Origin: Alphaproteobacteria bacterium
GTDB taxonomy: Bacteria; Pseudomonadota; Alphaproteobacteria; UBA2966
Length of the DNA stretch: 64,000 nucleotides
Assembly: GCA_964291395.2 (NCBI GenBank)
Contig: OZ219858.1
Coordinates: forward strand, 640,001-704,000
Direction: 5' to 3'
Positions 38,729 to 62,432 of this stretch are shown here, piece by piece. Below the pieces are notes generated by a model. It saw only the letters and a program-made list of their open reading frames with translations. It was not told the DNA's origin and searched no databases. Numbering within the stretch: the first letter of the stretch is position 1; every line of letters begins with the position of its first letter. A program made the position numbers and the translations under genes.

Positions 38729-38813
38729 GCGTCCCTTCGCCCGTCGATCATTCGTATCATTGGTGCGACGTTCCCAATCGAGACCCGACCCCGGGTCCGA
38801 CCCTCCTGGAGAT

Positions 38814-41459: not shown

Positions 41460-41461
41460 CT

Positions 41462-42478
41462 TTAGCTGCCGGACATGTCGTGGTTATTCTCGAAGTAGTA
41501 GTCCTTCCAGCTGTTGGCCTTGGGAATATCGCCAATCTTATGCAGGAAGTTCGCGTACTTCATGGTGTGCTTCGGCACCGGATCGAAGTCAATCTCGCTC
41601 TTGTCCGTCAGCATCGCCTTCACCTCGTCCGGGTCGAGCTTGGTCTTGGTGTACCTGATGTAGAGCTCGGCAGCCTCCAGCGGATTGGCATTCACCCACT
41701 CGAAGGCCTCGTTGTAGCCGTTGACCACCGCCTGGTAGGTCTTCGGATTCTTGTCCTTGAATTCCTGGCTGGCGCTCATCACCAGCACAGAGTGCTGACC
41801 GCCCAGGATGTCATAGGACGTGATGACGTTATGGGCCTTGCCGCTCTTCAGTTCCTGGAAGGAGTAGGGCAGCGTGGCGAAGTGGCTTTTCACCGTCTGG
41901 CCGCCCGACATGATGGCAGCGAGTGCGATGGGGTGCTTCATGGAGACGACCAGATGATCGAGCTTGGTCGGCTCGCCCCACTTTCCATCCGCGTACATCT
42001 GCAGGGTCACGGCCTGAATCGACACCTTCGCCGCCGGAGTCGCGATCTTGTGATCCTCGGCGTTGAGGTAGTCCTCGACCGTCTTGACGTTCGGATCGTT
42101 GGAGTTGAGCTTCAGGGGCATGTCGGCCATGCCGCTCGCGATCTTGAAGGCGCCCTTGGTCCTGCCCCACAGCTTGAGCGCTGGGCCGACGCCATGGGCG
42201 CCGAAGTCGATGGTCTTGGCGAGCAGGGCCTTGTTGATGTTGGCGCCGCCGCTGATCTTGAACAGCTTGATTTCGGGCACCGGCAGGCCGAGCTTTTTGG
42301 CGTGCTTCTCGACGAGCTTATGCTCGAGCACGACGTGCAGCGGCACGTACAGGAGCCCGAACTGCTGAGCCAGATTTACGGTGGAAACTTCCGCTTTGGC
42401 AGGTACGGCCGAAACGGCTGCAAGCATGACGCCTGCCGTACCGGCGGCGAGCCAGCTTTTGCGCGCAACAAATTTCAT
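41462..42478 (-). CDS. ABC substrate-binding protein (SsuA/NMT1-like)
   Basis: Signal peptide (PAKA-E), AQQFGLLYVPL, KIATPAAKVSIQA, MKHP, SHFA. Confidence 0.88.
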   Translation of the reverse strand: MKFVARKSWLAAGTAGVMLAAVSAVPAKAEVSTVNLAQQFGLLYVPLHVVLEHKLVEKHAKKLGLPVPEIKLFKISGGANINKALLAKTIDFGAHGVGPALKLWGRTKGAFKIASGMADMPLKLNSNDPNVKTVEDYLNAEDHKIATPAAKVSIQAVTLQMYADGKWGEPTKLDHLVVSMKHPIALAAIMSGGQTVKSHFATLPYSFQELKSGKAHNVITSYDILGGQHSVLVMSASQEFKDKNPKTYQAVVNGYNEAFEWVNANPLEAAELYIRYTKTKLDPDEVKAMLTDKSEIDFDPVPKHTMKYANFLHKIGDIPKANSWKDYYFENNHDMSGS

Positions 42479-42675
42479 ATTGTCCTCCTCTGTCGACAAC
42501 ACAGCGATTCCCAAATCGTCCGTCGCCAGAGCCCGATGTTGCCGCAAACCTATTGTCCGGTCCACCCCGTTCTTCGAGGCGTTGCCAACGGAGTGTGACC
42601 CCGGGGTTCGGCACTTGCCACGCGGGAGGCATGAGACCATGCTGATCGCGCCAATTCAGGGAGGTGGAGGCGGAC

Positions 42676-43662
42676 ATGACGGATACGACAGGCGGACTGG
42701 GGAGCGTGCTTTCGCCCGTCGCAGGCGGCGGGATTCCGGAAACACTATTGGAAGAGGCGGCGTATGAGGCCCATCGCATTGCGGCGACGACATTGCCCGA
42801 TGACGTCAAGCAGGCCTTCGTCGGCATGCGCGATCGCGAACAGGAAGAGTTGCCCAAACGGGTGCTTGAGGCGATTGTCGACAACTTCCACGCGGCCGAG
42901 GATGATCAACGTCCCGTATGCGCCGATGTCGGCGTGCCGCGGATCTACGCGGTCATTGGCAACGAGACGGCGATCGCCGGCGGCTTCGTCTCGTTCGAGC
43001 GCGCCGTGCGCCGCGCGACCGGGCGCATCACCAGCGATCTGGCACTGCGTTCGAACCGCTGCCATCCGATCACCCGGCGCAACCCGGGCAACAACGTCGG
43101 CGTCTTCGCGCCCAACATCGAGTACCGGGTCGAGCCTGACGCCGATTACATCGAGATCTGTGCCGTCCATAAAGGCGGCGCCTTCGGGACGGACTTTCGC
43201 ATGCTCGTGGACGGCGACGGGCTGCCGGGCATCCGCAAGGCCGTGCTGGACGCCATCGCGGAATTCGGCCGCCGCGGCCTGACCTGCCCGCCGGTCGTGA
43301 TCGGAGTCGGTCTCGGCGGAACAAAGGACCAGTCCTTCAGCATTGCCAAGCAGGCCGCGCAACTCCGTCCCATCGGAGACCGCCACCCCGACCCGGACGT
43401 AGCGGCGCTCGAGGATGAGCTCCTCGAGATGGCCAATTCGCTGGGGATCGGCGCCATGGGCTACGTGGGCACGGCGGGATATGCCACCGACGTTCACGTC
43501 GAGATCGCGTATACCCACAGTGCGCTGACGCCGATGGGCATCCATCAACTCTGCCAAGCCACGCGCCGCGGTGTCGTCCGGGTCCATATGGACGGCCGCA
43601 CCGAAACGCGACCCACGCCGTCATGGTTTTCGGACTACTCCCGCCGAATGGGCGTCGAATAG
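42676..43662 (+). CDS. Fe-S hydro-lyase alpha subunit (class I fumarase/L-tartrate dehydratase family)
   Basis: Three Cys motifs (PVCADVG, LTCPP..GVGLGG, LCQATRR), LRSN, NPGNN, LGIGAMG. Confidence 0.85.
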   Translation: MTDTTGGLGSVLSPVAGGGIPETLLEEAAYEAHRIAATTLPDDVKQAFVGMRDREQEELPKRVLEAIVDNFHAAEDDQRPVCADVGVPRIYAVIGNETAIAGGFVSFERAVRRATGRITSDLALRSNRCHPITRRNPGNNVGVFAPNIEYRVEPDADYIEICAVHKGGAFGTDFRMLVDGDGLPGIRKAVLDAIAEFGRRGLTCPPVVIGVGLGGTKDQSFSIAKQAAQLRPIGDRHPDPDVAALEDELLEMANSLGIGAMGYVGTAGYATDVHVEIAYTHSALTPMGIHQLCQATRRGVVRVHMDGRTETRPTPSWFSDYSRRMGVE

Positions 43663-43675
43663 GGAGGGCCGGAAC

Positions 43676-44365
43676 ATGGCGACGCACAGGTTTTCCATTC
43701 CCCTCCAAGAGGACGATGTCCGACAACTCCGCATCGGTGATATCGTCTATCTGGACGGCACGGTCCATACCGGCAGAGCACTGGTCTACGAGCATGTGCT
43801 TCAGGGCCAGAACCAGCCGCTTCTCGACCTTGCGAACGAGAGCAACGTGCAGATGCACGGTGCCCCAGCCGGGGTGGAGGACGCTCCCGGCGAGTACCGG
43901 CTGTCATCGATCCAGGCCACGGCGAGCTTCCGCTACTGGAAATACGTGCCCGACTACGTCGAACGGTTCGGGATACGCGCCATCATCGGCAAGGGTGGCA
44001 TGGACAAATGGGTCTACGAAGACGTCTTCGCCAAGACGGGAACTGTGTTCCTGACGACCGTCGGCTATGGCATCGCCGCCCTCTACGGCCGCGCAGTAAA
44101 ACGGGTCATCGACGTGCACTGGAAAGAGGAGCTCGGCCTGCCCGAGGCCATGTGGGTGCTCGATGTCGAGAACTTCGGTCCCTTCATCGTGGATGGGGAT
44201 TGTACCGGTGCCAGTCTCGCCGCAGAGCACGTCGACTCGGTCAACGAGAACTTCGCCCGCGAATACGCCAAGCTGCCGGAATACGTCCTCAAGCGCATCG
44301 GCGAGATCGACCATTCGCTCGCTAACGAGGTCATCGTCGGCAAACCGGCAGGCGACGGGGACTGA
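43676..44365 (+). CDS. Fe-S hydro-lyase beta subunit
   Basis: LRIGDIVYLDG, TASFR, IIGKGGM, ELGLPEAMW, FGPFIVDGD. Confidence 0.85.
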   Translation: MATHRFSIPLQEDDVRQLRIGDIVYLDGTVHTGRALVYEHVLQGQNQPLLDLANESNVQMHGAPAGVEDAPGEYRLSSIQATASFRYWKYVPDYVERFGIRAIIGKGGMDKWVYEDVFAKTGTVFLTTVGYGIAALYGRAVKRVIDVHWKEELGLPEAMWVLDVENFGPFIVDGDCTGASLAAEHVDSVNENFAREYAKLPEYVLKRIGEIDHSLANEVIVGKPAGDGD

Positions 44366-44425
44366 GAGCCCCGCCGCGTCCCGTTTCGGACCTCTCTCCA
44401 ACCTCGGGGGAGGGTGAGCTCCGCG

Positions 44426-45658
44426 TCAGCCTTCCTTGGTCCGCGCGCCGGCGATGCGCATCTCCGGCACGAACCAGAACAGCGCGACGGCGACGAACAG
44501 GGCCGCAAACGACAGGATGAAGACCGCGCTGTAGTTGCCGGTGGCGTCGTGCAGGATGCCGGCGATCCAGGTTCCTACCGCTGCACCGACTCCTTGTCCC
44601 GTCTGGATCGAACCGTAGATCGACGCCATGCCCCGGCCGCGGAAAAGTTGGGCCGATAGCGTGGCAATCACCGGACTCCGGACGCCCAGCGACAGACCGA
44701 AGCAGGTGACGAACGCCAGGACCGCCGCGGCGATGGGCAACTGAGGCAGCAACCACAACGCCAACAGCCCAATCATGCTGAGGCCATAGCTCAGCACGGC
44801 GATTACACGCCGGTCCCAACGGTCCGCCGCGATACCCGTGACGAGCATGCCCACGATGGACAGCCCGCCCGCGACGCCGAACGCGGTCGCGGCATCGAGC
44901 GGGTCCATCCCGTTTTCCACCATGTAGGTGACGGATTGCAGGCTGATGGCGTACATCCCCACGGAGGTGGCGAAGAACGCGCCCCAGAGGGCCCAAAAGG
45001 CCCGCCCGGACACCGCCTCGCGCAGGCTCGGGCCGCTGCTGGCGCCCACCGGACGGACCGGGCCCGCGGCAATGCGGCGCCAGGGCAGCAGCAGCACCGC
45101 GACGGCAAGCAGTATGACGGTACCGCCGATGATCTCGAGCGCGCCGCGCCACTCGAACGCGTCGATGAGCACCTGAGACAGGGGGGCCAAGCACAGGGTG
45201 CCGAAACCGAGGCCCGTTGAGGCGACGGCCATGGCGGCCGCCAAGTTGCGGTCGAACCAGCGGCTAATCAGGGATTGGGCGGGAACCATGCCGATCGCTG
45301 CGGCTCCGAAGCCGCCGCAGACGCCGACGGCAACATAGAACTGCCAGACGGTCTCCGATCGGGACGCGGTGAAGAACCCACCCCCCAGCATGAGCAGTCC
45401 GACGGTGTATATAATGCGTGGACCGAAGCGGTCGTGAGCCAATCCGGTCAAGATGCCGCCGAGGCCGAACACCATCATGAGGACGGAATAGACCGAGGCG
45501 ACCTCGGCGCGGCTCCATCCCAGGCCGGATTGCACCGGGGAGAGGAAAACCGGCCAAGTCTCGATCATGCCGCGCGCCAACATGAACAGGGCGAATACCA
45601 GCAAGAGTACGGCGACGGCAGCCGTGGCGGACCTCGTGACGGGACTCTCCGGGTTCAT
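44426..45658 (-). CDS. MFS transporter (OFA/MCT-like)
   Basis: 12 TM helices, GLAHDRFGPR, SRWFDRN, GIAADRW. Confidence 0.88.
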   Translation of the reverse strand: MNPESPVTRSATAAVAVLLLVFALFMLARGMIETWPVFLSPVQSGLGWSRAEVASVYSVLMMVFGLGGILTGLAHDRFGPRIIYTVGLLMLGGGFFTASRSETVWQFYVAVGVCGGFGAAAIGMVPAQSLISRWFDRNLAAAMAVASTGLGFGTLCLAPLSQVLIDAFEWRGALEIIGGTVILLAVAVLLLPWRRIAAGPVRPVGASSGPSLREAVSGRAFWALWGAFFATSVGMYAISLQSVTYMVENGMDPLDAATAFGVAGGLSIVGMLVTGIAADRWDRRVIAVLSYGLSMIGLLALWLLPQLPIAAAVLAFVTCFGLSLGVRSPVIATLSAQLFRGRGMASIYGSIQTGQGVGAAVGTWIAGILHDATGNYSAVFILSFAALFVAVALFWFVPEMRIAGARTKEG

Positions 45659-45903
45659 GGCGCAAGCATGTTAGCGGCCTCGCCCGGGGATTACCCTTCG
45701 CCGATGAACGAGCCGTAATCATGGCAATCGGGGAATGGCGGACACACGGCACGGGTCGCCGGGGGAGTCCGGTCACCCTACCATCGGTCAAGGTATTCCC
45801 GAGACCGGCCCATTGCAGCCACCCCGTTCCGCAAGGTCACGCTGCTGGATATCGTCGAGGCCGCGATTCGCCTCGATCATCGCGTCCCTGTCGAGAACGG
45901 GCG

Positions 45904-47220
45904 CTACTTGCCGCCCAGCATGACTTCGGGCAGCCAGAGCGCGGTCTGCGGATAGATCGTGATGATTACGATACCGATGCACATCAGGACGAAGAACGGA
46001 CCGGCGGCGACGGCGACCCGGCCGATGGGATGGCCGGTGAGGCCCTGAAGCACGAACAGATTGAAGCCGATCGGCGGCGTGATCTGAGCTAGTTCAACCA
46101 TCACCACCAGGAAGACGCCGAACCAGATCGGATCGAAGCCCGCTTGCAGGATCAGGGGCAGGGTGATGGGCAGGCTCATCACGGTGATCGATATGCCGTC
46201 GAGGAACAGGCCGAGCAAGATGTAGAACAGGCCGAGGATGAAGATCAGCTCGTACCGGGACAGTTCGAGCGTTGCGATCCAGCCGGCCAGCTCCGCCGGG
46301 ACATGGAGATAGCCCATGGCGGTCGACAGGAATGCCGCCGACACCAGAATCGAGCAGACCATGCATGAGACTTTGACCGCTCCCATCAGGGAGTCGACGA
46401 AGATCGGCCAAGTCAGCTGACCCATGACGAGACTAATGACGATCGTGGCCGCGACGCCGACGGCCGCGGCTTCCGAGGGAGTCGCCAAGCCCGAATAGAT
46501 GCCGCCGAGCACGAGCACGATGAGGACGAGAACCGGGAGCAGGTCGAGCACACCCCGCGCACGGTCGCTCCAGGTGTAGGCCTCGCCGCTGACGGGCGAG
46601 TACTCCGGCCGTAGGAGACAGCGGAAGCCGATGTAGCCGGAATAGAGGCCTGCTATCAGCAGCCCCGGAAACACGCCGGCTGCGAACAGTTTGGCGATGG
46701 AGACCTCCGCCAGGACGCCGTAGATGATCATGACGATGGACGGCGGGATGAGCAGGCCAAGGCTGCCCGCACCGGCCAGAGACCCGATGGTGAGATCGGT
46801 ATCGTAGCGCCGCTCAGCCAGGGCAACGGTGGTGATCTTGCCCACCGTCGCGGTCGTCGCGGTGCTCGACCCGCTCACGGCGGCAAACAGGGTGCAGCCC
46901 GCGACGTTGGTGTGGAGGAGGCGTCCGGGAATCATGTCCACCAGCGGTGACAAGCCACGGAACAGACGCTCCGAGATATCGGTGCGGAATATGATCTCGC
47001 CCATCCATACGAACATCGGGATAGCGGCAAGCTCCCATGTGCTTGCGCTGCGCCAGATGATCGGTTGGATGATGGTGCCGATGCGGCCGAGGGGAAAGTC
47101 GATCAGGAAGTAGAGGCTGGTGACGCTCACCAGCATCAGGCCAGAGAACACCCAGGCGCCAAGGCCCAGGTACAAGAACACGAGCAGCAGCGTTGCGGTG
47201 CCGGTGATGAGGGCTTCCAT
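45904..47220 (-). CDS. TRAP transporter large permease DctM
   Basis: LAAIPMF, FAAVSGSS, GSLGLLIPPS, ATPSEAA, ITPPIGFNLFV. Confidence 0.93.
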   Translation of the reverse strand: MEALITGTATLLLVFLYLGLGAWVFSGLMLVSVTSLYFLIDFPLGRIGTIIQPIIWRSASTWELAAIPMFVWMGEIIFRTDISERLFRGLSPLVDMIPGRLLHTNVAGCTLFAAVSGSSTATTATVGKITTVALAERRYDTDLTIGSLAGAGSLGLLIPPSIVMIIYGVLAEVSIAKLFAAGVFPGLLIAGLYSGYIGFRCLLRPEYSPVSGEAYTWSDRARGVLDLLPVLVLIVLVLGGIYSGLATPSEAAAVGVAATIVISLVMGQLTWPIFVDSLMGAVKVSCMVCSILVSAAFLSTAMGYLHVPAELAGWIATLELSRYELIFILGLFYILLGLFLDGISITVMSLPITLPLILQAGFDPIWFGVFLVVMVELAQITPPIGFNLFVLQGLTGHPIGRVAVAAGPFFVLMCIGIVIITIYPQTALWLPEVMLGGK

Positions 47221-47224
47221 AACT

Positions 47225-47749
47225 CTACCGCCTGCCCGGGTCTGCGGACCGGTCCACGCCCATGGGCTGTTCGCCGCCGAGCAATCGGACGAAATAGGCC
47301 AGCAACTGGATGGCGAACAGGACCAGACCGACGAACACAAGCGCCTCGGGAATCCACAACGGAGTCTCGACCATGGACTCACTGACCGCGCCACGGTCCC
47401 AGTTCCGTTTGACGCTGCGCCAGAAGAAAGCCGCGATGAAGATCGTGATGCCCAGCGTCGCGACGATGCAGAAGTACTCGACGATGCGCCGGAGCCGACC
47501 GCGCAGCCGGATGAGAACCAGGTTGACGCGGATCAAAGACCCCTCTTCGAAGGCGTAGGCCAGGGAGAGATAGGTCATCGCGGCAATGCCATAGCCGACG
47601 TATTCGTCGAGCACGAAGGTCGATGTGTGGAAGAAGCTGCGCAGGATGATCTCGAGAATGACGTGCGCCACCATCGCGACCAGAATCACCGCGGAGATCT
47701 GTCCCGCGAACTTCGAGATCCGGAATATGACGGCTTGAAGCCGCTGCAT
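47225..47749 (-). CDS. TRAP transporter small permease DctQ
   Basis: Four TM helices, LIRVNL, TPLWIP. Confidence 0.88.
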   Translation of the reverse strand: MQRLQAVIFRISKFAGQISAVILVAMVAHVILEIILRSFFHTSTFVLDEYVGYGIAAMTYLSLAYAFEEGSLIRVNLVLIRLRGRLRRIVEYFCIVATLGITIFIAAFFWRSVKRNWDRGAVSESMVETPLWIPEALVFVGLVLFAIQLLAYFVRLLGGEQPMGVDRSADPGRR

Positions 47750-47850
47750 GGCGATTACGACGAAATGGGGCGCCGCCCGTATCAGGTGGTCGCGTACGGC
47801 GCCACGGGTCGGCTATGCCTTATGGCGGTTCTTGTCGGGCTCGAACCGCT

Positions 47851-48855
47851 CTAGCTGCTTTCAAGACGCTTGCGATACTCGGCGATAATCGCTTCGCCGT
47901 CCCCGCCCATCTTCTCATACCAGTCGTCGAGCGCTTCCCGGCCCGCGTCGCCGAGTGCCGTCAGGTACTCGGCCGGCACGCGGGTGATGACGGTGACGCC
48001 GTTCTTCTCGAGCGTCTTGTAGTTCAGCCGCCGCCGCGTGATGACCTCCCGCCAGTTGCGGTCATTGGCGGCATCTGCGGATGCCTTGACCGCCTTTTTC
48101 AGATTATCGGGTAGGCCGTCGAACACGTCCTTGTTCATGTGGACCATGCTGAGCGGCATCGCGTAGTTGATCTCGGTGAAGTGGCTGAGATGTTCCCAGA
48201 ACTTAGCGTTCACGCCACCTTCCGCCGACGTCAGCACGGCCTGAATGCCGCCGGTGCTGAGCAGCGGGATGACGTCCGCCCAGCTCAACTTGACGGCCGC
48301 CGCGCCCGCCGCCTTGAGCGTAATGGTGCCGTTGCGGTCGTAGGTGCGGATCTTCAGGTTCTTCAATTCACCGATGCTGTTGACGGCCTTCTTGCCCCAG
48401 ATACCGCTTGGCGGCCAAGGTGACGCGTAGAGCAGAATCTGGTTGTGCTTGGCAAAGACGCGTTCGAAGTGCGGGCGGGCCGCCGCGAAGAGTGTCTTCG
48501 CCTCCCTCGTCGTCTTGGCCAGGAACGGCAGGGACGGCAGCAGGAAGATTGGATCGATGCCGCCAAACGCGCCGACGTAGCTGTCGGCGATCGGCACTGC
48601 GCCGTCGCCCACGGCGTCCAGCTGTTGAGCCGATTTGTAGCCGAGCGCACCGCCGAAATGATGGACGATCTCGATCTCACCGACCGTCGTGTCCTTGAGG
48701 GATTTCGAGAACCATTGGTCACCCTCACCGTGGATCGACGTCGCCTGGTATTCGTTTGGCATATCCCATTTGATGCTACCGGCCGTGGCCCCACCAATAC
48801 ATGCAGCCATCCCGAGACCGGTCACGGCCACGGCCTTGACGAGTCGTTCGAACAT
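47851..48855 (-). CDS. TRAP solute-binding protein DctP
   Basis: Signal peptide, WDMPNEY, LPFL, PWPPSG, LKIR. Confidence 0.9.
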   Translation of the reverse strand: MFERLVKAVAVTGLGMAACIGGATAGSIKWDMPNEYQATSIHGEGDQWFSKSLKDTTVGEIEIVHHFGGALGYKSAQQLDAVGDGAVPIADSYVGAFGGIDPIFLLPSLPFLAKTTREAKTLFAAARPHFERVFAKHNQILLYASPWPPSGIWGKKAVNSIGELKNLKIRTYDRNGTITLKAAGAAAVKLSWADVIPLLSTGGIQAVLTSAEGGVNAKFWEHLSHFTEINYAMPLSMVHMNKDVFDGLPDNLKKAVKASADAANDRNWREVITRRRLNYKTLEKNGVTVITRVPAEYLTALGDAGREALDDWYEKMGGDGEAIIAEYRKRLESS

Positions 48856-49102
48856 GTTCGATATCCTCCCTTGAATCAAATCCCGGTCTCCGCCGGGTCG
48901 CTCGAATCCGCGGTCGCGCTGCAGGCAAATCGTCTCGCAGAGAAGGAACGTCCATCCGTCGGGGACGCTCGGGACTCCCGGATCGATTAACGCATAGACC
49001 CTGTGGGGGGTCAACGAACCGCGGTCGAGGTGCCGGTAACACACGATGTTTCCGGTCCATGTACCAGATGATCCGTCCGGTTTTGGAAGGCCTCCAAGCC
49101 AC

Positions 49103-49244
49103 GCCGCGGTGGCCGCCTTCCATGGGCGCCCACTCGCCAACCGCTACAAGGCGCTGATGCTCGACGGTGTGGTGCTCGCCCGCAAGACCGGCGCCGGCGC
49201 GCTCAGGCGCCGGTCCTGGTGGCGCTCGGCATCAGACCGGACGT
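49103..49244 (+). mobile_element. IS256-family transposase internal fragment (frameshifted)
   Basis: AAVAAFHGRPLANRYKALMLDGVVLARKTGAGALRR, then in another frame PVLVALGIRPD; includes the first catalytic Asp (LDG). Confidence 0.75.
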
Positions 49245-53206: not shown

Positions 53207-53824
53207 ATGGCCCTGGAAGTTCCGCTCCCCACCGGCGATGACGTGCTCATGGACGCCCTGTCTCGTCTAAGCGACGAGCACGCCCTCGCCATGCCTTACC
53301 TGGACGAGGCGGCATGTGCGGCGCTGGTCGACTGTTGCGCGAAGCTCGCGTTCCGCGACGCGAAGCCGGTTCTGGGCAAACCCGGAGAAGAGGTCTATCA
53401 GGATCTCGAACTGACCGTCGACATCCCGGGGAACAGCCCGCTCGTCGTCCTGGCGAAACGGCTGGAGTCGGACCTGCAGAACGCCCTCGACCGGTTGGAG
53501 CCGCCGCCGCTCGATTACCCGTTCGTCATCAACGATTTCATCGTGCAGCGTTATTTGTCGGGCCGGAAGGGTATCACGCCGCACCGCGACCACGTGCGAT
53601 ACCGCGGCTTGGTGGCGATCATCGTGCTCGGCGGGACGGGAAGCTTCTGGATCTGCAGCGATCGGAGCGGTGCGGGTCGGTGCGACATTCCGGCACCACC
53701 GGGCTCGCTCCTCCTCATGCGGGCGCCGGATTTCGCCGGCCGCACGGACCGGCCCTTCCACGCCCTCTCGGAAATCACCGAGACGCGCTACAGCTTCGGC
53801 ATGCGCCACGACGTCTCGCTCTGA
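53207..53824 (+). CDS. 2OG-Fe(II) oxygenase family protein
   Basis: VQRY..GITPHRD, PGSLLLM, PFH, RYS. Confidence 0.75.
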   Translation: MALEVPLPTGDDVLMDALSRLSDEHALAMPYLDEAACAALVDCCAKLAFRDAKPVLGKPGEEVYQDLELTVDIPGNSPLVVLAKRLESDLQNALDRLEPPPLDYPFVINDFIVQRYLSGRKGITPHRDHVRYRGLVAIIVLGGTGSFWICSDRSGAGRCDIPAPPGSLLLMRAPDFAGRTDRPFHALSEITETRYSFGMRHDVSL

Positions 53825-53837
53825 TACACCGAGTCGA

Positions 53838-53869
53838 ACCGGGGGCAGACCTCAGGTCCGACCCCCGGT
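53838..53869. terminator. Hairpin between convergent genes (REP-like)
   Basis: ACCGGGGG...CCCCCGGT inverted repeat. Confidence 0.5.
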
Positions 53870-53870
53870 G

Positions 53871-54689
53871 TTATCCCGAGACGAGGGTGAAGCGCTGCAC
53901 GTCCCGATCGATTTTGTCGAGGATGCCCTTGAGATCGTCGTCCCCATCCGGGAGCGGCGCCAGCCAACGGCCCTCAAAGAAGATCTCCAGCGGGTCCTCA
54001 CCGAAGGGATAGGGCGACAGTTCGTAGGTCGCGTTCCCCGTCGGACGTATCGTGATGGTCACGTCTTCCTCCGCCGTCGTCGGTACGTGGGGAAACGAGG
54101 TTTCTTCCCGCGCGTCTTCGTGCACGCGATTGAAGTAGAGCGCGAGCGTGTCGAAGAACTGGAGTTGCTTGTAATTCTGAAAGAGATGCCTTTCCTCGAT
54201 CCAGACGGCGGTTTCGGGATCCTGGGCGAGCTCTTCCTTGAGCTTCTTTTGTCGTGCCAGTTCGCCGTCGAGGAACGGCTTGAGCGTCGCTTGGGCCTCG
54301 TCGGCCATATCGAGGATCACGACCTTGTCCGAGAGCCCGTAGCGGCCATTGTAGAGCCCCCAGGAGTGCATGCTCGACAGCAGCCCGCAGTAAGCGTGGC
54401 GCTTGATATTGAAGTCGGGCGACCGCTTGCTCGTGGGTGCGATGAGATCGAGGGGTGTCTCGATCAGGTCGTAAGGCAGGCGTGTCCCAGGATCGAGAGG
54501 AGCTTCGGCGTCGAGATCAGCCCAGCCATGATCGTGGTGTTCGACCAGGTAGATGACCTCTTCGCGGGGTTCCACGGATTCGAACCGATCGTTCCCGTAG
54601 GCCTTCGCGAACCGCCCCGCGAGGGCAGTGTGTTCCGACATCGTAATGATGAAGTGAGGTTCGCCTTCCGGCGCGCTTTGGACCATCAT
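53871..54689 (-). CDS. DUF3891 family protein
   Basis: EHTALAGRFA..GN, HHDHGW, YCGLLSSMH, LQFFDTLALY, LSPYPF. Confidence 0.75.
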   Translation of the reverse strand: MMVQSAPEGEPHFIITMSEHTALAGRFAKAYGNDRFESVEPREEVIYLVEHHDHGWADLDAEAPLDPGTRLPYDLIETPLDLIAPTSKRSPDFNIKRHAYCGLLSSMHSWGLYNGRYGLSDKVVILDMADEAQATLKPFLDGELARQKKLKEELAQDPETAVWIEERHLFQNYKQLQFFDTLALYFNRVHEDAREETSFPHVPTTAEEDVTITIRPTGNATYELSPYPFGEDPLEIFFEGRWLAPLPDGDDDLKGILDKIDRDVQRFTLVSG

Positions 54690-54804
54690 CGGTCTGTCCC
54701 CCCGACCGTGTTTGCCGTACCGGAAATCTAACACAACTCGGGGCCTTCCTAACTCTCTGTCCACGCCTGGACGGCGGCCGACCCCAGCGCCTAGACTCCC
54801 GCAA

Positions 54805-54841
54805 GCGAGAAGAGCCGTGACTTGGCGAGAAGAGCCGTGAC
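54805..54841. repeat. 17-bp direct repeat, period 20, in a divergent intergenic region
   Basis: GCGAGAAGAGCCGTGAC at 54805 and 54825. Confidence 0.85.
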
Positions 54842-54867
54842 CGCGAGGCTCGCGAGGAGGTCCGTCG

Positions 54868-56067
54868 ATGCCATCCCGCAACCGCGAGACATGGGAGCGT
54901 CCGCCCGACCTTCCCGAGACCCACTACGTCGACGCGACCGCCTACGCCGACCCCGATATCTTCGCCGACGAGATGTCGCGGATCCTGGCGCGATCCTGGC
55001 GGTTCGGGTGCCACGAGAGCGAATTGCCCGACGCCTTCGATTTCCGCACCATCGACCACGCCGAGGTGCCGCTGGTGATGATCCGGGGCGAAGACGGCCG
55101 GATTCGGACCTTCTACAACGTCTGCCCCCATCGCGGCGCCAAGCTGTTCAACGACCTCTCGGGCAACGCCAGGCTCAAGACCTGCTTTTTCCATCACTGG
55201 ACGTTCGACTGGAAGGGCGACTGCGTCAGCAGGCCGCGCCCGAAGGCCTATGACGACATGAACTTGCGTGCCGAGGACTGCGGGCTTCGGGAAGTGCACA
55301 CGGACACCCTCTACGGCCTCGTCTTCTTCAACCTCGACGACCGTCCCATCCCCTTCGCCGATTATTTCGGCGACGCCCTCGCGTCCTTCGAGCGGACACT
55401 GACGGAGGAACCCGTGGAGGTCTTCCACTATCACCAAGCCGTGGTCCGGGCGAATTGGAAGCAGTGGGTCGAGTCCAACATGGACCACTATCACGAGTGG
55501 ATGCACGTCATGCTGCGGCGCACGAACGTGCTCACCGAGGAGACGCTCTTCAAGCGTCACGTCGAGCTTTATCCTTACGGCCACATCATGTTCCGGGGCA
55601 TGCAGATCGATTACCAGGACGAGGCCACGGTCGTGCCGCGCGAGCAGTCGAAGGCGCTTCCCGGGCTGACCGCCGAAACCTTCCATGCAACGCCGATCTT
55701 TCCCAACACGGTGCTGATGACCCGCGGCACCGTCATGCGGATCGACACGACCACGCCGCTCACGCCGGACACCTCGCTCGTCGAGTTTCGCGGGCTCGGG
55801 CTGAAGAACGACAGCGAGGAGGACCGGATGGTCAGAATTCGCCAGCACAACGAGTTCTGGGGGCCGATGAGCCACAATCTGCCGGAGGACCTCTTTGCCG
55901 CAGAACAGTGCGCGAAGGGTTACCGCACGGGCGGTGCCGCCTACGGCATCATCTGCCGCGAAGAGAACATGTCGGCCCAGGACGATGGGGGCATGCGCCA
56001 TTTCTATGCGGAGTGGAGCAAATGGATGGACCGGCCGGCAGGCGACCCCAGGACCAAGGCCGCGTGA
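54868..56067 (+). CDS. Rieske non-heme iron oxygenase alpha subunit, MsmA-like
   Basis: CPH-x17-CFFH, DHYHEWMH, EVFHYH, VEFRGLGLK, NLPEDL, GMRHFYAEWS. Confidence 0.85.
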   Translation: MPSRNRETWERPPDLPETHYVDATAYADPDIFADEMSRILARSWRFGCHESELPDAFDFRTIDHAEVPLVMIRGEDGRIRTFYNVCPHRGAKLFNDLSGNARLKTCFFHHWTFDWKGDCVSRPRPKAYDDMNLRAEDCGLREVHTDTLYGLVFFNLDDRPIPFADYFGDALASFERTLTEEPVEVFHYHQAVVRANWKQWVESNMDHYHEWMHVMLRRTNVLTEETLFKRHVELYPYGHIMFRGMQIDYQDEATVVPREQSKALPGLTAETFHATPIFPNTVLMTRGTVMRIDTTTPLTPDTSLVEFRGLGLKNDSEEDRMVRIRQHNEFWGPMSHNLPEDLFAAEQCAKGYRTGGAAYGIICREENMSAQDDGGMRHFYAEWSKWMDRPAGDPRTKAA

Positions 56068-56077
56068 GGGCTGGAGC

Positions 56078-56542
56078 TTGGCCGTCGGCAACGAGGATAT
56101 CCGCGATTTTCTGAACAAGGTGGCCGACGCGCTCGACCGGGAGGCGTGGGACGAATTCCTGTCGATGTGCGCGCCCGAGTTCGAGTATCGCGTGACGGCA
56201 TACTCCTACGAACTCGACAAGGAGATGGTCTGGCTGATCCACGACATGGACGGCCTGCGCTACCTGTTCGATGTGCTGCCCGAGCAGCTCGGCCGCAGGG
56301 GAACCCGGATGTTGCGCCAGATCTCGGTCACCGATATCTCGCGGGGAGAGGCGAACGGGCACGTGGACGTGACGAGCAAGGTCATCGCCGTTCGAACGTC
56401 GCCGGAGGGCGTGTCGGAACTGTTCGCGGCGGGCCGATACCTGGATGTCGTCTATGTCGCCGGCGGGACGCCGCGCATGATCAAACGGGAAACCCGGCTC
56501 GACACGCGCGAGCTCGGCATAGGCTCCCACGTGCCGATATAG
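56078..56542 (+). CDS. Rieske oxygenase beta subunit, MsmB-like
   Basis: FEYRVTAYSYELDKEMVWL, ELFAAGRY, RLDTRELGIGSHVPI; TTG start inferred. Confidence 0.8.
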   Translation: MAVGNEDIRDFLNKVADALDREAWDEFLSMCAPEFEYRVTAYSYELDKEMVWLIHDMDGLRYLFDVLPEQLGRRGTRMLRQISVTDISRGEANGHVDVTSKVIAVRTSPEGVSELFAAGRYLDVVYVAGGTPRMIKRETRLDTRELGIGSHVPI

Positions 56543-56553
56543 GCGGTGGTCGC

Positions 56554-57426
56554 GTGAAGCCCGCACCTTTCGAATATTTCGCGCCGGAGACGGCGGAAGA
56601 GGCGCTCGCCCTGATGGCCGAGCACGGCGTGGAGGCGAGACCGCTCGCCGGCGGGCAGAGCCTTGTTCCGTTGATCAACATGCGCATGGCACAGCCCTCG
56701 GTGCTGATCGACCTGAACCGCTGCCCCGAGCTCGCCTACCTGCGCGAGGAGGACGGCATGCTCGTCAGCGGCCCCATGACGCGGCAGCGCGAGCTGGAAC
56801 TCTCCGAGACCGTTCGCGCCGCCTGCCCGCTCATTGCCAAAGCGATGCCACATATGGGCCATGCCACGATCCGCAACCGCGGGACCGCCGGTGGCAGCCT
56901 GAGCCACGCCGATCCGTCGGCGGAGCTCCCCGGCGTGGCGCTGGCGCTGGGCGCCGAGATGATCGCGGGCGGGCCGAACGGACGACGCACCGTGCCGGCG
57001 ACGGAGTTCTTCCTCGCCGAACTGACGACCGCTCTGGAACCGGATGAGATGCTCTGCGAGATCAGGTTTCCCGAAGCCCCGGCCGGGTCCCGGGCCGCCT
57101 TTGCCGAAGTCGGCAGTCACTTCGGCGGACTGGCTCTCGTCGGCGTCGCCGCGCAGATCGACCTCGATTCCGCCGGCCGTTGCACCAAGGCGGCGCTGGC
57201 CGCCACGGGCGCCGGGGAACGGCCGACGCGTCTGTCGTCCACGGAGGCGGTCTTGACGGGCGAAGTCCTGGAGGAACGGTCGGTTGCCGAGGCCGCCGAG
57301 GCCGCGGCAGGCGACGTGGAGCCCCTGGAAGACCTTCACGCCACGGCCCACTGGCGCCGGCGTGCGGTCGTCGCCATGGCGGCGCGGGCCCTGCACGAGA
57401 TTGCGGACGGGGCGGGAACGCGATGA
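56554..57426 (+). CDS. Molybdenum hydroxylase FAD subunit (CoxM/XdhB-like)
   Basis: KPAPFEY, LAGGQSL, IRNRGTAGGSLSHADP. Confidence 0.92.
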   Translation: MKPAPFEYFAPETAEEALALMAEHGVEARPLAGGQSLVPLINMRMAQPSVLIDLNRCPELAYLREEDGMLVSGPMTRQRELELSETVRAACPLIAKAMPHMGHATIRNRGTAGGSLSHADPSAELPGVALALGAEMIAGGPNGRRTVPATEFFLAELTTALEPDEMLCEIRFPEAPAGSRAAFAEVGSHFGGLALVGVAAQIDLDSAGRCTKAALAATGAGERPTRLSSTEAVLTGEVLEERSVAEAAEAAAGDVEPLEDLHATAHWRRRAVVAMAARALHEIADGAGTR

Positions 57427-57915
57427 CGGCGCGCCGCGAAGTCCGCGTCACGGTCAATGGCCGCGCGTACGCGCGCAACGTGGAACCTCGAATGCTGCTG
57501 GTCGATTATTCTGCGCCACGAATGCGGCCTGACGGGGACGCACGTGGGCTGTGCGCATGGGGTCTGCGGTGCGTGCACCATCGTGTTGGACGGCGTCTCG
57601 GTCCGAAGCTGCCTCACCTTCGCCGTTCAGGCCGAGGGAAAGGAGATCACGACCGTCGAAGGCCTCGCGGACGGCGACGCGCTGAACGCCCTGCAGCAGG
57701 CCTTCCACGAGAACCACGCGCTCCAATGCGGCTACTGCACGCCCGGTTTCCTCATGTCGCTGACGGAATTTCTCCGGGAAACGCCGGATCCCGATGAGGG
57801 CCAGATTCGCGAACGCCTCTCGGGCAATCTGTGCCGCTGCACGGGGTACGCCAACATCGTGAGCGCCGTGCGGATGGCCGCCCGGCGTTTGCGCGAGGAG
57901 GGCCGCGTGTCGTGA
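57423..57915 (+). pseudogene. Molybdenum hydroxylase 2Fe-2S subunit (CoxS-like) with a one-base insertion near 57510
   Basis: MTARREVRVTVNG..VEPRMLLVDY, an extra T, then LRHECGLTGTHVGCAHGVCGACT..QCGYCTPG..NLCRCTGY. Confidence 0.85.
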
Positions 57916-57917
57916 GC

Positions 57918-60404
57918 ATGCAGGGAGACAACCCGGGGACCGGGACGTGGGTCGGCAGAACCGTTCCGCGCAAGGAGGACCTGCGCCTCCTGCGTGGCAT
58001 CGGCACCTATATCGACGACGTCCCCGAACCGCGCGGCACGCTGCACCTCGCCATGCTGCGCAGTCCATATGCCCACGCCCGAATCCGCGGGATCGAGACG
58101 TCCGAAGCCGAAGCCCTGGACGGCGTCGTCGCGGTCGTCACCGGCACCGAGGTTGCCGAGCTGATCCCGCCGTTCGCGGGGGACTACGAAAAGCCCGGAT
58201 TCAAGATGTCGCACCGGCCGGCTCTGGCCACCGATACGGTACGGTTCGTCGGCGACGGGGTGGCCCTGGTTCTGGCGGCGAACGCGTACATTGCGGAGGA
58301 CGCCCTCGGCCTCGTTTTCGTGGACTATGAACAGCTGCCGGCCGTTTCCGGCGTCGAGGAGGCGCTGAAGCCCGACGCACCCCGCGTTCACGAAGAGCTG
58401 GCAGACAACGTCCTCGTCGAGGGAGGCGACAGAACCGAGGGTTTCGACGAGGTCCTTGAAGCGGCCGATCACATCCTGCGCGAGCGATTCCACATCAACC
58501 GCGTGGCCGGCGTGGCGATGGAACCGCGAGGCTGTCTCGCCGTCTACGAGAAATCCGACGATGCGGTCACGTTGTGGACGGGAACCCAGGTCCCCCACAT
58601 GCTGCGCATCGGCATCGCCCGTTACCTCGGCTGGCCGGAGAGCCAGGTCCGCGTGGCGGCGCCCGACGTTGGGGGTGGTTTCGGTCCCAAGATGTATCTC
58701 TACCCCGAGGAGCTTCTCGCGGTCGCCATGGCGCGCGAATACCGATGCCCCATAAAATGGATCGAGGACCGGCTCGAGGATTTTCTGACCACCCTTCAGG
58801 CGCGCGATCACGTTTACGACGTGGCGGTCGCCTACGACGACGACGGCACCGTGCGGGCGGTCGAGGTCGACGTGGCGGTGAACTCCGGCGCCTATTCCAA
58901 CTTTCCCATGGGGGTCGGCCTCGAGCCGTTTCAGGGGCCCTTGAACATGCCGGGACCCTACCGCTTCCGCCAGTTCGCCTTCACCTGCAGGGGAGTCGCG
59001 ACCCATACCTGCCCGACGGGCGCGTTTCGGGGCGTGTCGGCACCATGCGTCACCACGGCCATGGAAGGCATGATGGACCGTATCGCGCGTCACCTGGGCC
59101 TGGACCGGGTGGAGGTCCGCCGCCGCAATCTCGTCAGGCCGGATGAATTCCCCTATGTCAACGTGGTCAACCAGCTCTACGTCACGGGAAGCTATGTCGA
59201 ATGCATGGACCGCGCCCTGGAGATGGTGGACTACGAGGGTTATCTGGCGGCGCGGCCGCCGGAGCGGCCGGTCGACGGCAAGTATCGTGGTATCGGAATC
59301 GCCGTGGTGACCGAGCTCGGGGGTCAAGGGGCGGCACGGTACAAGGCGCGAGGCCTTCCCGATCTGCCGGGATTCGACACGGCCCTCGTCGAGCTCGAAC
59401 CCGACGGGCGGGTACGCGCCACGACCAGCTTTTCAAGCCAGGGCCAGGGTCATGAGACCACCTTCGCCCAGATCATCGCGGACGAGCTCGGGGTCTCCAT
59501 CGACGACGTTGCGGTCCGGGGCGGGGATACCGGCACCTCGCCGTTTGGCACCGGAACGTTCGCAAGCCGCGGGGCCGTGGTCGGCGGCGGCGCCGTCATG
59601 CGGGCTTCGGGCGATTTGCGCGAAAGGATCAAGAGGTTCGCGGCCCATCTTCTGGAGGCGAGCCCTGACGACATCGTGCTGGAAGGCGGTCACGCCCACG
59701 TGCAGGGCGTCCGCGAGATGCGCGTGAGTTTCCACGACGTCGCGCGGGCGGCCTACGGTCTCACCGAGTCGATGCAGCTTCCGGAAGGTGAGGAGTTCGG
59801 GCTGGAAGCGACCGCCACTTACGACCCGCCGGCATCCTCCATCTCCAATGCCTGCCACATCGCCTGTGTCGGCGTCGACGCGGCAACCGGGCTCGTCGAA
59901 GTGGAACGTTATATCGTCGTTCACGATTGCGGCCGCGTGGTCAATCCGCTCCTCGTCAAAGGCCAGATTCAAGGTGGAGTCGCGCAAGGTCTCGGACAGG
60001 CCCTGTTCGAGGAAATCCTTTATGACGCGGAAGGGCAGATGCTGTCGGCGACCCTGATGGACTACATGATCCCCACCGCTCTCGATGTCCCAACCCTGGA
60101 GATGGAGCACATCGAGTCCCCGGCGACGGACAATATCGGGGGATTCAAAGGCGCCGGCGAGGGCGGCGTCATCGGGGCGCTGCCCGCGATCGCCTGTGCC
60201 GTGGGCGATGCGCTGGCGCCCTCGGGCGCCAACGTGAACCGGCTGCCCTTGCGGCCGGATACGGTCCTCGTCGCGAGACCGAGCTTCGCCGGCGCGAGGC
60301 GATCGACGGGCCGGTGCAAGCCGAGGACGACGACCCCGACGGCGGCGCCTGGCATTGAGACAGAGTGTCATTTACGGTACTTGTTGCACCTGCGGCGTTC
60401 ATGA
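57918..60404 (+). CDS. Molybdenum hydroxylase large subunit (xanthine dehydrogenase/CoxL family); C-terminus after ~60270 looks foreign
   Basis: RKEDLRLLRG, MEPRG, GGGFGPK, AFRG, QGQGHET, TFASR, DCGRVVNP, KGAGE. Confidence 0.9.
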   Translation: MQGDNPGTGTWVGRTVPRKEDLRLLRGIGTYIDDVPEPRGTLHLAMLRSPYAHARIRGIETSEAEALDGVVAVVTGTEVAELIPPFAGDYEKPGFKMSHRPALATDTVRFVGDGVALVLAANAYIAEDALGLVFVDYEQLPAVSGVEEALKPDAPRVHEELADNVLVEGGDRTEGFDEVLEAADHILRERFHINRVAGVAMEPRGCLAVYEKSDDAVTLWTGTQVPHMLRIGIARYLGWPESQVRVAAPDVGGGFGPKMYLYPEELLAVAMAREYRCPIKWIEDRLEDFLTTLQARDHVYDVAVAYDDDGTVRAVEVDVAVNSGAYSNFPMGVGLEPFQGPLNMPGPYRFRQFAFTCRGVATHTCPTGAFRGVSAPCVTTAMEGMMDRIARHLGLDRVEVRRRNLVRPDEFPYVNVVNQLYVTGSYVECMDRALEMVDYEGYLAARPPERPVDGKYRGIGIAVVTELGGQGAARYKARGLPDLPGFDTALVELEPDGRVRATTSFSSQGQGHETTFAQIIADELGVSIDDVAVRGGDTGTSPFGTGTFASRGAVVGGGAVMRASGDLRERIKRFAAHLLEASPDDIVLEGGHAHVQGVREMRVSFHDVARAAYGLTESMQLPEGEEFGLEATATYDPPASSISNACHIACVGVDAATGLVEVERYIVVHDCGRVVNPLLVKGQIQGGVAQGLGQALFEEILYDAEGQMLSATLMDYMIPTALDVPTLEMEHIESPATDNIGGFKGAGEGGVIGALPAIACAVGDALAPSGANVNRLPLRPDTVLVARPSFAGARRSTGRCKPRTTTPTAAPGIETECHLRYLLHLRRS

Positions 60405-60523
60405 TCCATGTTCATCCCGACGAAGGAGGCGCCACCAGGGCGCGGACCGCCGCGTCCGCGCCGAAGACATCCTCGCCTGGCGTCGCGAGACCGAGCTTCG
60501 CCGGCGCGAGGCGATCGACGGGC
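60269..60523. repeat. 43-bp exact direct repeat (60269-60311 and 60481-60523)
   Basis: CGTCGCGAGACCGAGCTTCGCCGGCGCGAGGCGATCGACGGGC seen twice. Confidence 0.9.
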
Positions 60524-60558
60524 TGACCGCACGCGACCAGAAACTCGGCCTGCAATAG
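60448..60558 (+). pseudogene. C-terminal remnant of an excisionase-like HTH protein
   Basis: RRVRAEDILAWRRETELRRREAIDGLTARDQKLGLQ-stop, directly upstream of a PIN start. Confidence 0.65.
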
Positions 60559-60561
60559 GCG

Positions 60562-60723
60562 ATGGCCGGACCGACGGCGTTGCTGGATGCCAACGTGCTC
60601 TATCCGGCCGGTCTTCGCGGCGTAGGAGTTCCGGTTTTGCTTCCGGTGCCGGCGGCTCCTCGGGAGGTGACATACGAGGCCGGCGCCGCTTCGGGAACGA
60701 GCGTGATCGTCTGCGGGACTTTC
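60562..60723 (+). pseudogene. Internally deleted PIN-domain gene
   Basis: MAGPTALLDANVLYPAGLR, later AASGTSVIV followed out of frame by LRDF. Confidence 0.65.
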
Positions 60724-62432
60724 AGCCGCCGTCGCGGCACCCCGAGCCGGCGTGCCGGGCCTCGAGGGCCGCTTCTCGCGCCTCGGTCAGCGTCGTGCGG
60801 GTTGTAATCGCCTCGGGATCCATGCGGATGTCGAGGACCGCGGCGCGGCCGCAAGCCAGCGCGTCCTCGAAGGCGGGAGCGAAATCCTCCGTCCGTTCGA
60901 TGGCGGCGGCCGAAAGCGCCGAAGCTCTCGGCATACTTGGCAAAATCCGGATTGGTCAGATCCGTACCGCTGATGCGGCCGGGAAACTGCTTCTCCTGAT
61001 GCAGCCGAATGGTCCCGTAGATGCCGTTGTTGAACACCAGGATGAGCGGCGCGACCTCGTGGTGAATGGCAGTGGCCAACTCGTTGCCGGTCATCATGAA
61101 TCCACCGTCGCCGACAAACGAGACCACAGGCCGGTCCGGCGCCACGAGCTTGGCCGCGATGCCCGCGGGCACGCCGTATCCCATGGCGCCATTCGCGGGG
61201 CCCAACAACGTGCGGAAGCGGGTGAACTGGTAGAACCGTTGCGGCCAGCCGGAGAAATTGCCCGCATCGACCGTGATAATGGCGTCCTGAGGCAGCCGGG
61301 TACGCACCGTATCCATCACCCGATAGAGATCGACGGTTCCGGGAGACGCCACCGCCTCGAGCGTCTCGAGATAGTCACGGCGGGCGGCCTCGACCCAATC
61401 GCCCCAAGCCGTCCACTCGACGGGCTCCAACGTCCTGACCGCGGCCGCGAATTCGGCCACGGAAGCCACGATCGCGAGATCCGGCCGATAGACCCGGCCG
61501 ATCTCGTTGGCGTCGGGGTAGACGTGGACGAGCGTGGCTTGGGGACGAGGCGGCTGCAACAGCGTGTAGCCTTCGGTTGTGACGTCGCCGAGGCGGGTGC
61601 CCACCGCGAGAACGAAGTCGGCCTGCCGCAGGCGTTCGGAGACCTTCGGATCCTTTGCATAAGCCAGGTCGCCCGCATAGGACGGATGATGGTTGCTGAG
61701 CAGGTCCTGGCGCCGGAAATCCACCAGGGTCGGGATGTGGTTCGCCTTGGCGAAGGCGGCCAGGTCGTCGCAGGCTTCCGCCGTCCACCCGCCGCCGCCG
61801 AGGATCATGAGAGGCCGTTTGGCGCGCGCCAGCAGCTCATGCAGGCGGCGTAGCTCCATCCGGCCCGGATAGCCAGGCTCTGGCATGGCGGGCTCGACAT
61901 CGGCCACCACCGCGGTTTCCCGCTGCATGTCTTCCGGAATGGCCAGGACCACGGGGCCGGGACGTCCCGAGCGCGCCGTATGGAACGCGCGGGACACGAA
62001 CTCGGGCATGCGGGCAGGATCGTCGATCTGGGCCGCCCATTTGGCGGTCCAGCCGAACATCCGTTCGACATCGACCTCCTGAAATGCCTCGCGCCCGACA
62101 AACGGGCGGGGCACCTGGCCCACGAACATCACCAGGGGCGTGGAATCCTGGTGGGCGATATGCACGCCGACGCTGGCGTGACAGGCGCCCGGGCCCCGCG
62201 TGACGAAGCAGACGCCCGGATTGCCCGTCATCTTGCCGTAGGCTTCCGCCATGTTCGCGGCGCCGGCCTCGTGCCGGCACGTCATGAAGCGGATGCTCGG
62301 GGCGTCGTAGATGTTATCGAGGACTTCGAGATAGCTCTCGCCCGGGACGCCGAACGCCATGTCGACGCCGTGCGTCTTCAGGGCGTCGACGAGGATTCGG
62401 CCACCGGTTCGTGCCTGTAGTGCCTGCGCCAC
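60722..62432 (-). pseudogene. TPP-dependent enzyme (acetolactate synthase large subunit-like) with a one-base insertion near 60908
   Basis: FGVPGESYL, RHEAGA, TRGPG, GAMGYGVPA, GDGG..NN; the natural C-terminus (AAIERTEDFAPAFEDAL..DPEAIT) is in another frame ending at 60722. Confidence 0.85.

Follow-up and report, generated by a model that had tools for sequence, protein, structure and literature searches.

In Pseudomonas putida 86, a molybdenum (Mo) hydroxylase and a Rieske 8-monooxygenase act in one route of quinoline degradation. The genes of its quinoline 2-oxidoreductase (QorMSL; PDB 1T3Q) presumably run in the order medium-small-large, and we take them to adjoin the Rieske oxygenase gene oxoO, with the reductase gene oxoR lying apart. 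Aerobic CO dehydrogenase (CoxMSL) belongs to the same family of three-subunit enzymes. Methanesulfonate monooxygenase, MsmABCD of Methylosulfonomonas methylovora (for which the Methylocella silvestris locus L076 served as proxy), is a two-subunit Rieske hydroxylase, and the usual partners in the wider MsmA group are a Rieske ferredoxin of the MsmC type and a Fer2-FAD-NAD reductase of the MsmD type (FAD, flavin adenine dinucleotide). As stated in extracts of Henriques and De Marco (PMC4433239), every proven methanesulfonate user has a 26-residue spacer in the Rieske motif, the names of 'MsmA' proteins with a 17-residue spacer stem from automatic annotation, and these extracts report no evidence of methanesulfonate use for the short-spacer proteins. 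Here we describe a locus in a 64,000-nucleotide stretch of alphaproteobacterial DNA (the window, G000:C3:640001-704000) in which the genes for the alpha and beta subunits of an MsmA-like oxygenase are followed on the same strand by those for the FAD, [2Fe-2S] (FeS) and Mo subunits of a hydroxylase.

On balance, and with moderate confidence, we read this locus as encoding two enzyme systems that are each self-sufficient, are probably co-transcribed and perhaps serve one catabolic route. The reading rests on the gene order and domains of the locus, on partners encoded in trans, and on losses and interruptions in relatives; from these we infer reductase sharing, co-transcription, a common pathway and a class of substrate. 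The alpha/beta pair would be the terminal oxygenase of a multi-component Rieske monooxygenase, and electrons would most likely pass from NADH through an MsmD-like reductase and an MsmC-like ferredoxin encoded at C1:660999-662454, partners on which all eight alpha/beta loci of the genome would draw. The FAD-FeS-Mo enzyme would insert oxygen from water, and its two electrons would run from Mo by way of two [2Fe-2S] clusters and FAD to a separate acceptor of its own. The five genes would probably form one transcript, and both enzymes may take successive steps in degrading one compound, perhaps a sponge-derived N-heteroaromatic, possibly sharing a route as in quinoline degradation by P. putida 86. 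Such a link would be optional, because either half survives alone in relatives.

The oxygenase and the molybdenum enzyme

The alpha subunit (Pfam Rieske and Ring_hydroxyl_A) has the two Cys and two His of a Rieske cluster and a catalytic His pair and is paired with a beta subunit, as in alpha/beta-type Rieske non-haem iron oxygenases. Among 25 aligned proteins, C86, H88, C106, H109, H209, and H213 were invariant in all, the four Rieske ligands had no insertion between them, and N204, Y208, H209, and H213 were invariant or nearly so. By analogy with the family, His209 and His213 presumably bind the active-site iron, and a carboxylate ligand is expected as well. The initial annotation had singled out three motifs, a 17-residue Rieske spacer, SNMDHYHEWMH and the Mo-subunit loop AFRGVSA, and all three are present.

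Classic MsmA carries CXH-X26-CXXH, as does the Methylocella protein, which is encoded with msmB, msmC, and msmD; the window alpha subunit has a spacer of 17 residues, no adjoining msmC or msmD, and 37–40% identity to 26-spacer MsmA loci. In a tree of 91 alpha sequences (quick search, LG+G4, SH-aLRT, midpoint root), the 26-spacer proteins formed a 23-row clade (SH-aLRT 98). The window protein was not among them: it lay across the midpoint root, within a clade of 16 rows whose members have 17-residue spacers (SH-aLRT 98). By its spacer and separate placement, the alpha subunit is a member of the short-spacer MsmA-like group, a previously noted but uncharacterised sister group, and appears not to be a methanesulfonate monooxygenase. 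The annotation was thus right that it is not classic MsmA, but the subfamily that it took for new is already in print, as extracts of PMC4433239 indicate. Those extracts give the CXH-X17-CXXH motif for 'MsmA' proteins of Methylibium, Methyloversatilis, Thiobacillus, and others, whose automatic naming as methanesulfonate monooxygenase is shared by relatives of the window protein: at 40–46% identity, these are often called 'methanesulfonate monooxygenase large subunit' by one source. Methylibium-type loci mostly have the order alpha-beta-msmD-msmC, whereas loci of the window's 16-row clade mostly do not (two of the 11 outside the genus do). A different locus of the same genome, C1:1613093-1615183, encodes a 26-spacer MsmA-type alpha subunit, a beta subunit, and an MsmC-like ferredoxin with no adjoining reductase, and is a candidate for a true methanesulfonate monooxygenase in a sponge-associated bacterium.

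The three downstream genes have the Pfam content of the three-subunit xanthine dehydrogenase (XDH)/CoxL family, with FAD_binding_5 and CO_deh_flav_C in the FAD subunit and Ald_Xan_dh_C, MoCoBD_1, and MoCoBD_2 in the Mo subunit. Among solved structures, the Mo subunit matched quinoline 2-oxidoreductase best, through the large subunit of that enzyme (1T3Q_B; 626 bits, residues 12–783), and CO dehydrogenases scored lower (484, 427, and 417 bits). In the alignment, the counterpart of its GAFRGVS(A) segment is GAYRGVG in Qor and VAYRCSFR in CO dehydrogenase (1N5W), the latter being the loop that holds the copper-binding Cys, which the window protein lacks. AYRGAGR is the loop motif of form II CO dehydrogenase, and the window loop, AFRGVSA, matches neither this nor the form I loop; the form I model TIGR02416 gave 525 bits against a cut-off of 991. 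None of the five proteins of the locus reached an NCBIfam equivalog cut-off. Glu748 of the Mo subunit is conserved with Glu743 of quinoline 2-oxidoreductase, which we take to be the catalytic base. Because of the top score, the similar loop, and this Glu, the enzyme appears to be a Qor-like hydroxylase with a loop that is ordinary for its branch. As the initial annotation had proposed, it is not a CO dehydrogenase and its loop differs from CO dehydrogenase loops; the loop is not new, however, as it resembles that of Qor. The P. putida system differs in its neighbouring oxygenase, which there is of the alpha-only OxoO type and here is a two-subunit, MsmA-like enzyme. Elsewhere in this Mo clade, L115:2341-8319 (genome G025) carries on one strand genes for a VanA-like Rieske alpha subunit, a 341-residue protein without a Pfam family, and FAD, FeS, and Mo subunits, the last 53% identical to the window's.

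Linkage in relatives

The order of the five genes, their tight spacing, and the lack of a local ferredoxin or reductase, all described in the initial annotation, were confirmed by open reading frames, Pfam, and tblastn. Intergenic distances from alpha through beta, FAD, and FeS to Mo are 10, 11, −4 (an ATGA overlap), and 2 nt, and the window contains no match to PF00175, PF00111, or PF14759 and no MsmC- or MsmD-like tblastn match. Orthologues of the Mo subunit (84–86% identity) occur in five of five genomes of the same genus. One of these, G005, retains the full order QOR-2OG-DUF3891-alpha-beta-FAD-FeS-Mo. Three others, G001, G002, and G004, have QOR-2OG-FAD-FeS-Mo at the syntenic site, without DUF3891, alpha, and beta, and no alpha orthologue was found in these genomes (top matches of 48, 48, and 40% identity). 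In G001 and G002, a ~95-nt remnant of the beta 3′ end is kept at the original spacing to the FAD start codon and is fused to the end of the 2OG gene, which establishes loss by deletion rather than original absence; the deletion in G004 is larger. The DUF3891 gene was gained and lost jointly with alpha and beta. In the fifth genome, G003, the locus is split over two contigs: its left half stops 1.5 kb short of the end of one, and its right half begins 313 nt into the other. The tight order of the window recurs in four metagenome contigs (L119, L120, L121, and L123; alpha 84% identical), and the arrangement appears to be ancestral to one genus-level group and inherited with its flanks. Lack of conservation in other genomes had been named at the outset as grounds for doubting a functional module. 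Such a lack was found at least in part: the linkage is confined to one genus-level group with syntenic flanks, and it was lost by deletion in three of the five congeners, with the Mo operon kept, and was interrupted in two further lineages. These congeners provide a natural experiment of loss versus retention.

When 13 genomes were searched for the window's family, three had an alpha orthologue. A further orthologous pair lies outside this set in genome G101 (locus L001; alpha and beta 82 and 79% identical), beside a TRAP transporter and a luciferase-like monooxygenase, and no Mo orthologue was found in G101 (best match 42%). The occurrence of the pair in a genome beyond those 13, and in a different gene context, suggests horizontal transfer among marine or sponge-associated bacteria. 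Identification of L001 with G003 was rejected, as DNA identity over alpha/beta was only 75.6% and L001 lies in G101. Also rejected was a luciferase-like partner shared by L001 and the metagenome contig L122, as the two genes have 20–23% identity over short stretches (E 0.5 and 4e-05) and are not orthologues.

A wider survey covered 79 genome loci that carry a relative of alpha. Of these, 57 had an MsmD- and/or MsmC-like gene (50 had both), and five had XDH-family genes within 10 kb (L007, L011, L012, L040, and L042, from three lineages). L007 pairs, in divergent orientation, the nearest outside alpha subunit (51% identity) with the nearest outside Mo subunit (53%). L042:9914-13116 and L040 encode an alpha subunit with a 19-residue spacer and no beta. 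Only CoxS-like and CoxM-like genes come next on that strand, and the gene for the Mo subunit is found ~6.5 kb farther on, past RidA genes, a TonB receptor, and a PQQ dehydrogenase.

Electron supply and proposed functional coupling

The initial annotation had supposed that the Mo enzyme stands in for ferredoxin and reductase, that it oxidises an aldehyde product of the oxygenase, and that it may also return electrons to the Rieske centre. It had named dependence on a cognate ferredoxin or reductase encoded elsewhere as a second ground for doubt. In partial agreement with this doubt, a search of the whole source genome (G000; 4.16 Mb, 3 contigs, 64% G+C) revealed the MsmD-like reductase and MsmC-like ferredoxin introduced above. 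The reductase (C1:660999-662039; 347 residues, Fer2-FAD_binding_6-NAD_binding_1) is 46% identical to MsmD of L076 and is one of just two Fer2 plus NAD_binding_1 reductases in the genome, where a profile search found no Reductase_C (PF14759) proteins; downstream of it lie a Rieske ferredoxin 44% identical to MsmC and a 17-spacer alpha/beta paralogue. Orthologues of the reductase, at 77–86% identity, are encoded in G001, G003, and G005. G000 has nine MsmA-like alpha genes at eight loci, with a reductase at one of the eight and a ferredoxin at two. Seven of eight alpha/beta loci thus lack a reductase, with a Mo enzyme near or not, so that having none nearby is the norm in G000. One electron chain serving several oxygenases is common practice in bacteria rich in such enzymes, and by analogy the eight loci may share this single MsmD/MsmC-like chain, which makes it a candidate common electron supply for eight oxygenases.

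The surrounding locus (L117; G000:C1:655000-668000) has the order TauE sulfite exporter, transporter, DAO/GCV_T enzyme, MsmD-like reductase, MsmC-like ferredoxin, 17-spacer alpha, beta, and SnoaL-like protein; a GCV_T protein is encoded on the other strand. By gene content it is a short-spacer system with all four components, adjoining genes for sulfite export and one-carbon (C1) handling.

A redox-closed module, in which the FAD and FeS subunits of the hydroxylase pass substrate electrons to the Rieske centre and so replace ferredoxin and reductase, would account for the lack of partner genes in the window and for the tight spacing of the five genes; its two-electron bookkeeping would also balance. 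L040 and L042, with the alpha gene directly before CoxS-like and CoxM-like genes and the Mo subunit at a distance, fit this idea as well, as do the raw survey counts, in which the five loci with XDH neighbours were among the 22 lacking a local MsmC or MsmD and none was among the 57 having one. This was the pattern foreseen in the initial annotation, but it disappeared once relatedness was included. Over four independent contrasts, relatives without an XDH neighbour also lacked local MsmC/D in 3.6 of 4 on average (sign test, p = 1); the lack of local partners thus goes with the clade rather than with the Mo enzyme, and we rejected the raw anti-correlation as evidence. Other results also speak against coupling. 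First, the Mo operon outlives deletion of alpha/beta in G001, G002, and G004. Second, G101 has the orthologous oxygenase and no Mo orthologue. Third, the genome encodes an MsmD/MsmC-like pair, and, as noted, a local reductase is missing from seven of its eight alpha/beta loci. In view of these natural deletions and trans-encoded partners, we consider a redox-closed module very unlikely, and a literature search found no published precedent for a Mo hydroxylase supplying electrons to a Rieske oxygenase. Just as doubtful is a broader proposal for this group of marine and sponge-associated bacteria, whereby the FAD and [2Fe-2S] centres of XDH-family enzymes would feed MsmA-like oxygenases, water hydroxylation would pay for O2 oxygenation without NADH, and the window and L040/L042 would be two forms of the system. 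Only the redox-coupled reading, if true, would change ideas on electron supply to Rieske oxygenases. As for the proposed aldehyde intermediate, nothing points to one.

Are the two enzymes functionally linked at all? They may be mere neighbours, with a DUF3891-alpha-beta cassette and an unrelated Mo operon having become adjacent in the ancestor of the genus group without a common substrate or pathway. The genome is dense in both kinds of gene: it has 16 places encoding CoxL-like large subunits, the window's Mo subunit included, so that ~8% of positions in the genome would lie within 10 kb of one and ~0.6 of its eight alpha/beta loci would be expected to do so by chance. The rarity of XDH-family neighbours in the survey, deletion of the cassette in three of five congeners, the broken junctions in G005 and L122, and the different surroundings of the orthologous pair in L001 point the same way. 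Against chance adjacency, the window, L119, L120/L121, L123, and even the G001/G002 remnant all retain the spacing of 10–11 nt on one strand. Moreover, Rieske oxygenase genes of various kinds lie near four of the six loci examined for this Mo clade (the window, its own paralogue L199 with the G003 counterpart L202, L007, and L115, but not L200 or L201). This recurrence and the L007 pairing lean towards a functional tie, and we regard mere adjacency as rather unlikely, although clearly less so than redox coupling.

Several observations weigh against our preferred reading of two self-sufficient, co-transcribed systems. First, an insert of ~330 nt separates beta from the FAD gene in G005 (L114:8679-9002), and contig L122 has a 2.1-kb insert at the same junction, with an opposite-strand LysR gene and the broken luciferase-like gene; both insertions argue against strong selection for co-transcription. 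Second, flanking synteny is conserved too, and genus-level linkage is therefore not independent evidence of shared function. Third, every locus with an XDH neighbour in the survey lacked local MsmC/D, before relatedness was considered. Fourth, reductases of G101 and G102 are only 32–33% identical to the C1 MsmD-like reductase, which is itself 39% removed from the window system in alpha identity. Fifth, contigs of the RNA library X20 may stem from contaminating DNA, and bridging by a contig is no proof of a single transcript. Finally, the substrate class and common pathway, like the sharing of a reductase with the window oxygenase, are things that we infer. The G005 insert ends in a G+C-rich inverted repeat right before the FAD start codon.

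Contigs in the DNA runs X1, X2, and X3, from three studies, bridge the beta-FAD junction. In X20, one contig spans 56490–56855 with no differences, which hints, though weakly, at co-transcription; further contigs lie over parts of all three Mo-enzyme genes. A scan of 53700–60800 predicted no promoters (shuffled mean 0.7) and four terminators (mean 4.4), neither count exceeding that expected from shuffled sequence.

Sequencing runs that contain window sequence are mostly labelled sponge metagenome, and the closest record bearing a name is a metagenome-assembled genome labelled Defluviicoccus sp. Sponge-symbiont genomes are rich in Rieske oxygenases and CoxL-like enzymes, and the reading of two self-sufficient systems, if true, adds one more uncharacterised catabolic cluster to them. 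On that reading, 'methanesulfonate monooxygenase' and 'CO dehydrogenase' annotations in such genomes should not be trusted at face value.

Features, assembly, and surroundings of the locus

Features of the five-gene locus and the divergent upstream gene (window coordinates).
Feature	Position	Strand	Description
Rieske oxygenase alpha subunit	54868-56067	+	399 residues; PF00355 + PF00848; short-spacer MsmA-like group
Oxygenase beta subunit	56078-56542	+	154 residues; TTG start; PF00866/PF13577 (Ring_hydroxyl_B/SnoaL_4)
FAD-binding medium subunit of Mo hydroxylase	56554-57426	+	290 residues; GTG start; PF00941 + PF03450
Small subunit, two [2Fe-2S] clusters	57423-57915	+	Fer2_2 (Pfam); two frames in assembly
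Mo-pterin large subunit	57918-60404	+	828 residues; PF01315 + PF02738 + PF20256
Rieske cluster motif C86-x-H88-x17-C106-x2-H109	55123-55194	+	in alpha; C86-P-H88 ... C106-F-F-H109
SNMDHYHEWMH, alpha residues 203-213	55474-55506	+	presumed iron ligands His209 and His213
Active-site loop AFRGVSA, Mo-subunit residues 369-375	59022-59042	+	from alignment with Qor and CO dehydrogenase
Glu748 of Mo subunit	60159-60161	+	aligned with Glu743 of quinoline 2-oxidoreductase
DUF3891 gene	53871-54881	-	divergent from alpha; PF13030, E 6.5e-37

The [2Fe-2S] gene is split across two frames by one surplus base at 57509/57510 (within 57504–57513), a feature overlooked in the initial annotation that also hides the N-terminal Fer2 domain of the small subunit from Pfam. 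Taken at face value, this frameshift would make the Mo enzyme a pseudogene set in a decaying locus, and several further CoxL-like genes of the assembly likewise show as two separate matches. However, five orthologues of the [2Fe-2S] gene are in frame and lack the extra base, and contigs of four of four public runs (three DNA-type runs from three studies and one RNA library, X20) omit one letter, at 57509 in X1, X3, and X20 and at 57511 in X2, with the depth of the deletion equal to total depth at the site in each run. The gene is thus intact in the population, the frameshift reflects a mistake in the assembly or a rare variant, and decay of the locus is extremely unlikely. A by-product of the analysis is therefore an exposed indel in the assembly.

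Three CoxL-like genes and one MsmA-like alpha gene elsewhere in the genome each gave two separate tblastn matches (C3:30200-32543, C3:1068298-1070588, C1:630734-633038, and C1:1692589-1693852); these are either more assembly indel errors or genuine pseudogenes.

Orthologues of the beta subunit align from residue 1. Relatives of the DUF3891 protein (three loci) align only from residue 59–63; the true start is likely an ATG near 54689, which would leave ~178 nt between the divergent genes. Farther upstream, at 37880–49140, the window encodes a TauD-family dioxygenase, an NMT1-like ABC transporter set, a two-subunit fumarase, an MFS transporter, and TRAP DctM/DctP proteins, with no gene clearly tied to the five-gene locus.

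At the other end, the Mo gene resembles its orthologues only as far as 60270. These terminate ~8 codons farther on, at 792 residues, whereas the frame in the window runs to 828, and its 3′ end past 60270 is uncertain. No long contig of X1 spans 60217–60312. A 43-nt direct repeat occupies 60269–60311 and 60481–60523, and the convergent TPP-enzyme gene (60600–62432, minus strand) encodes an odd Arg/Pro-rich C-terminal tail, relatives matching to residue 508 only.

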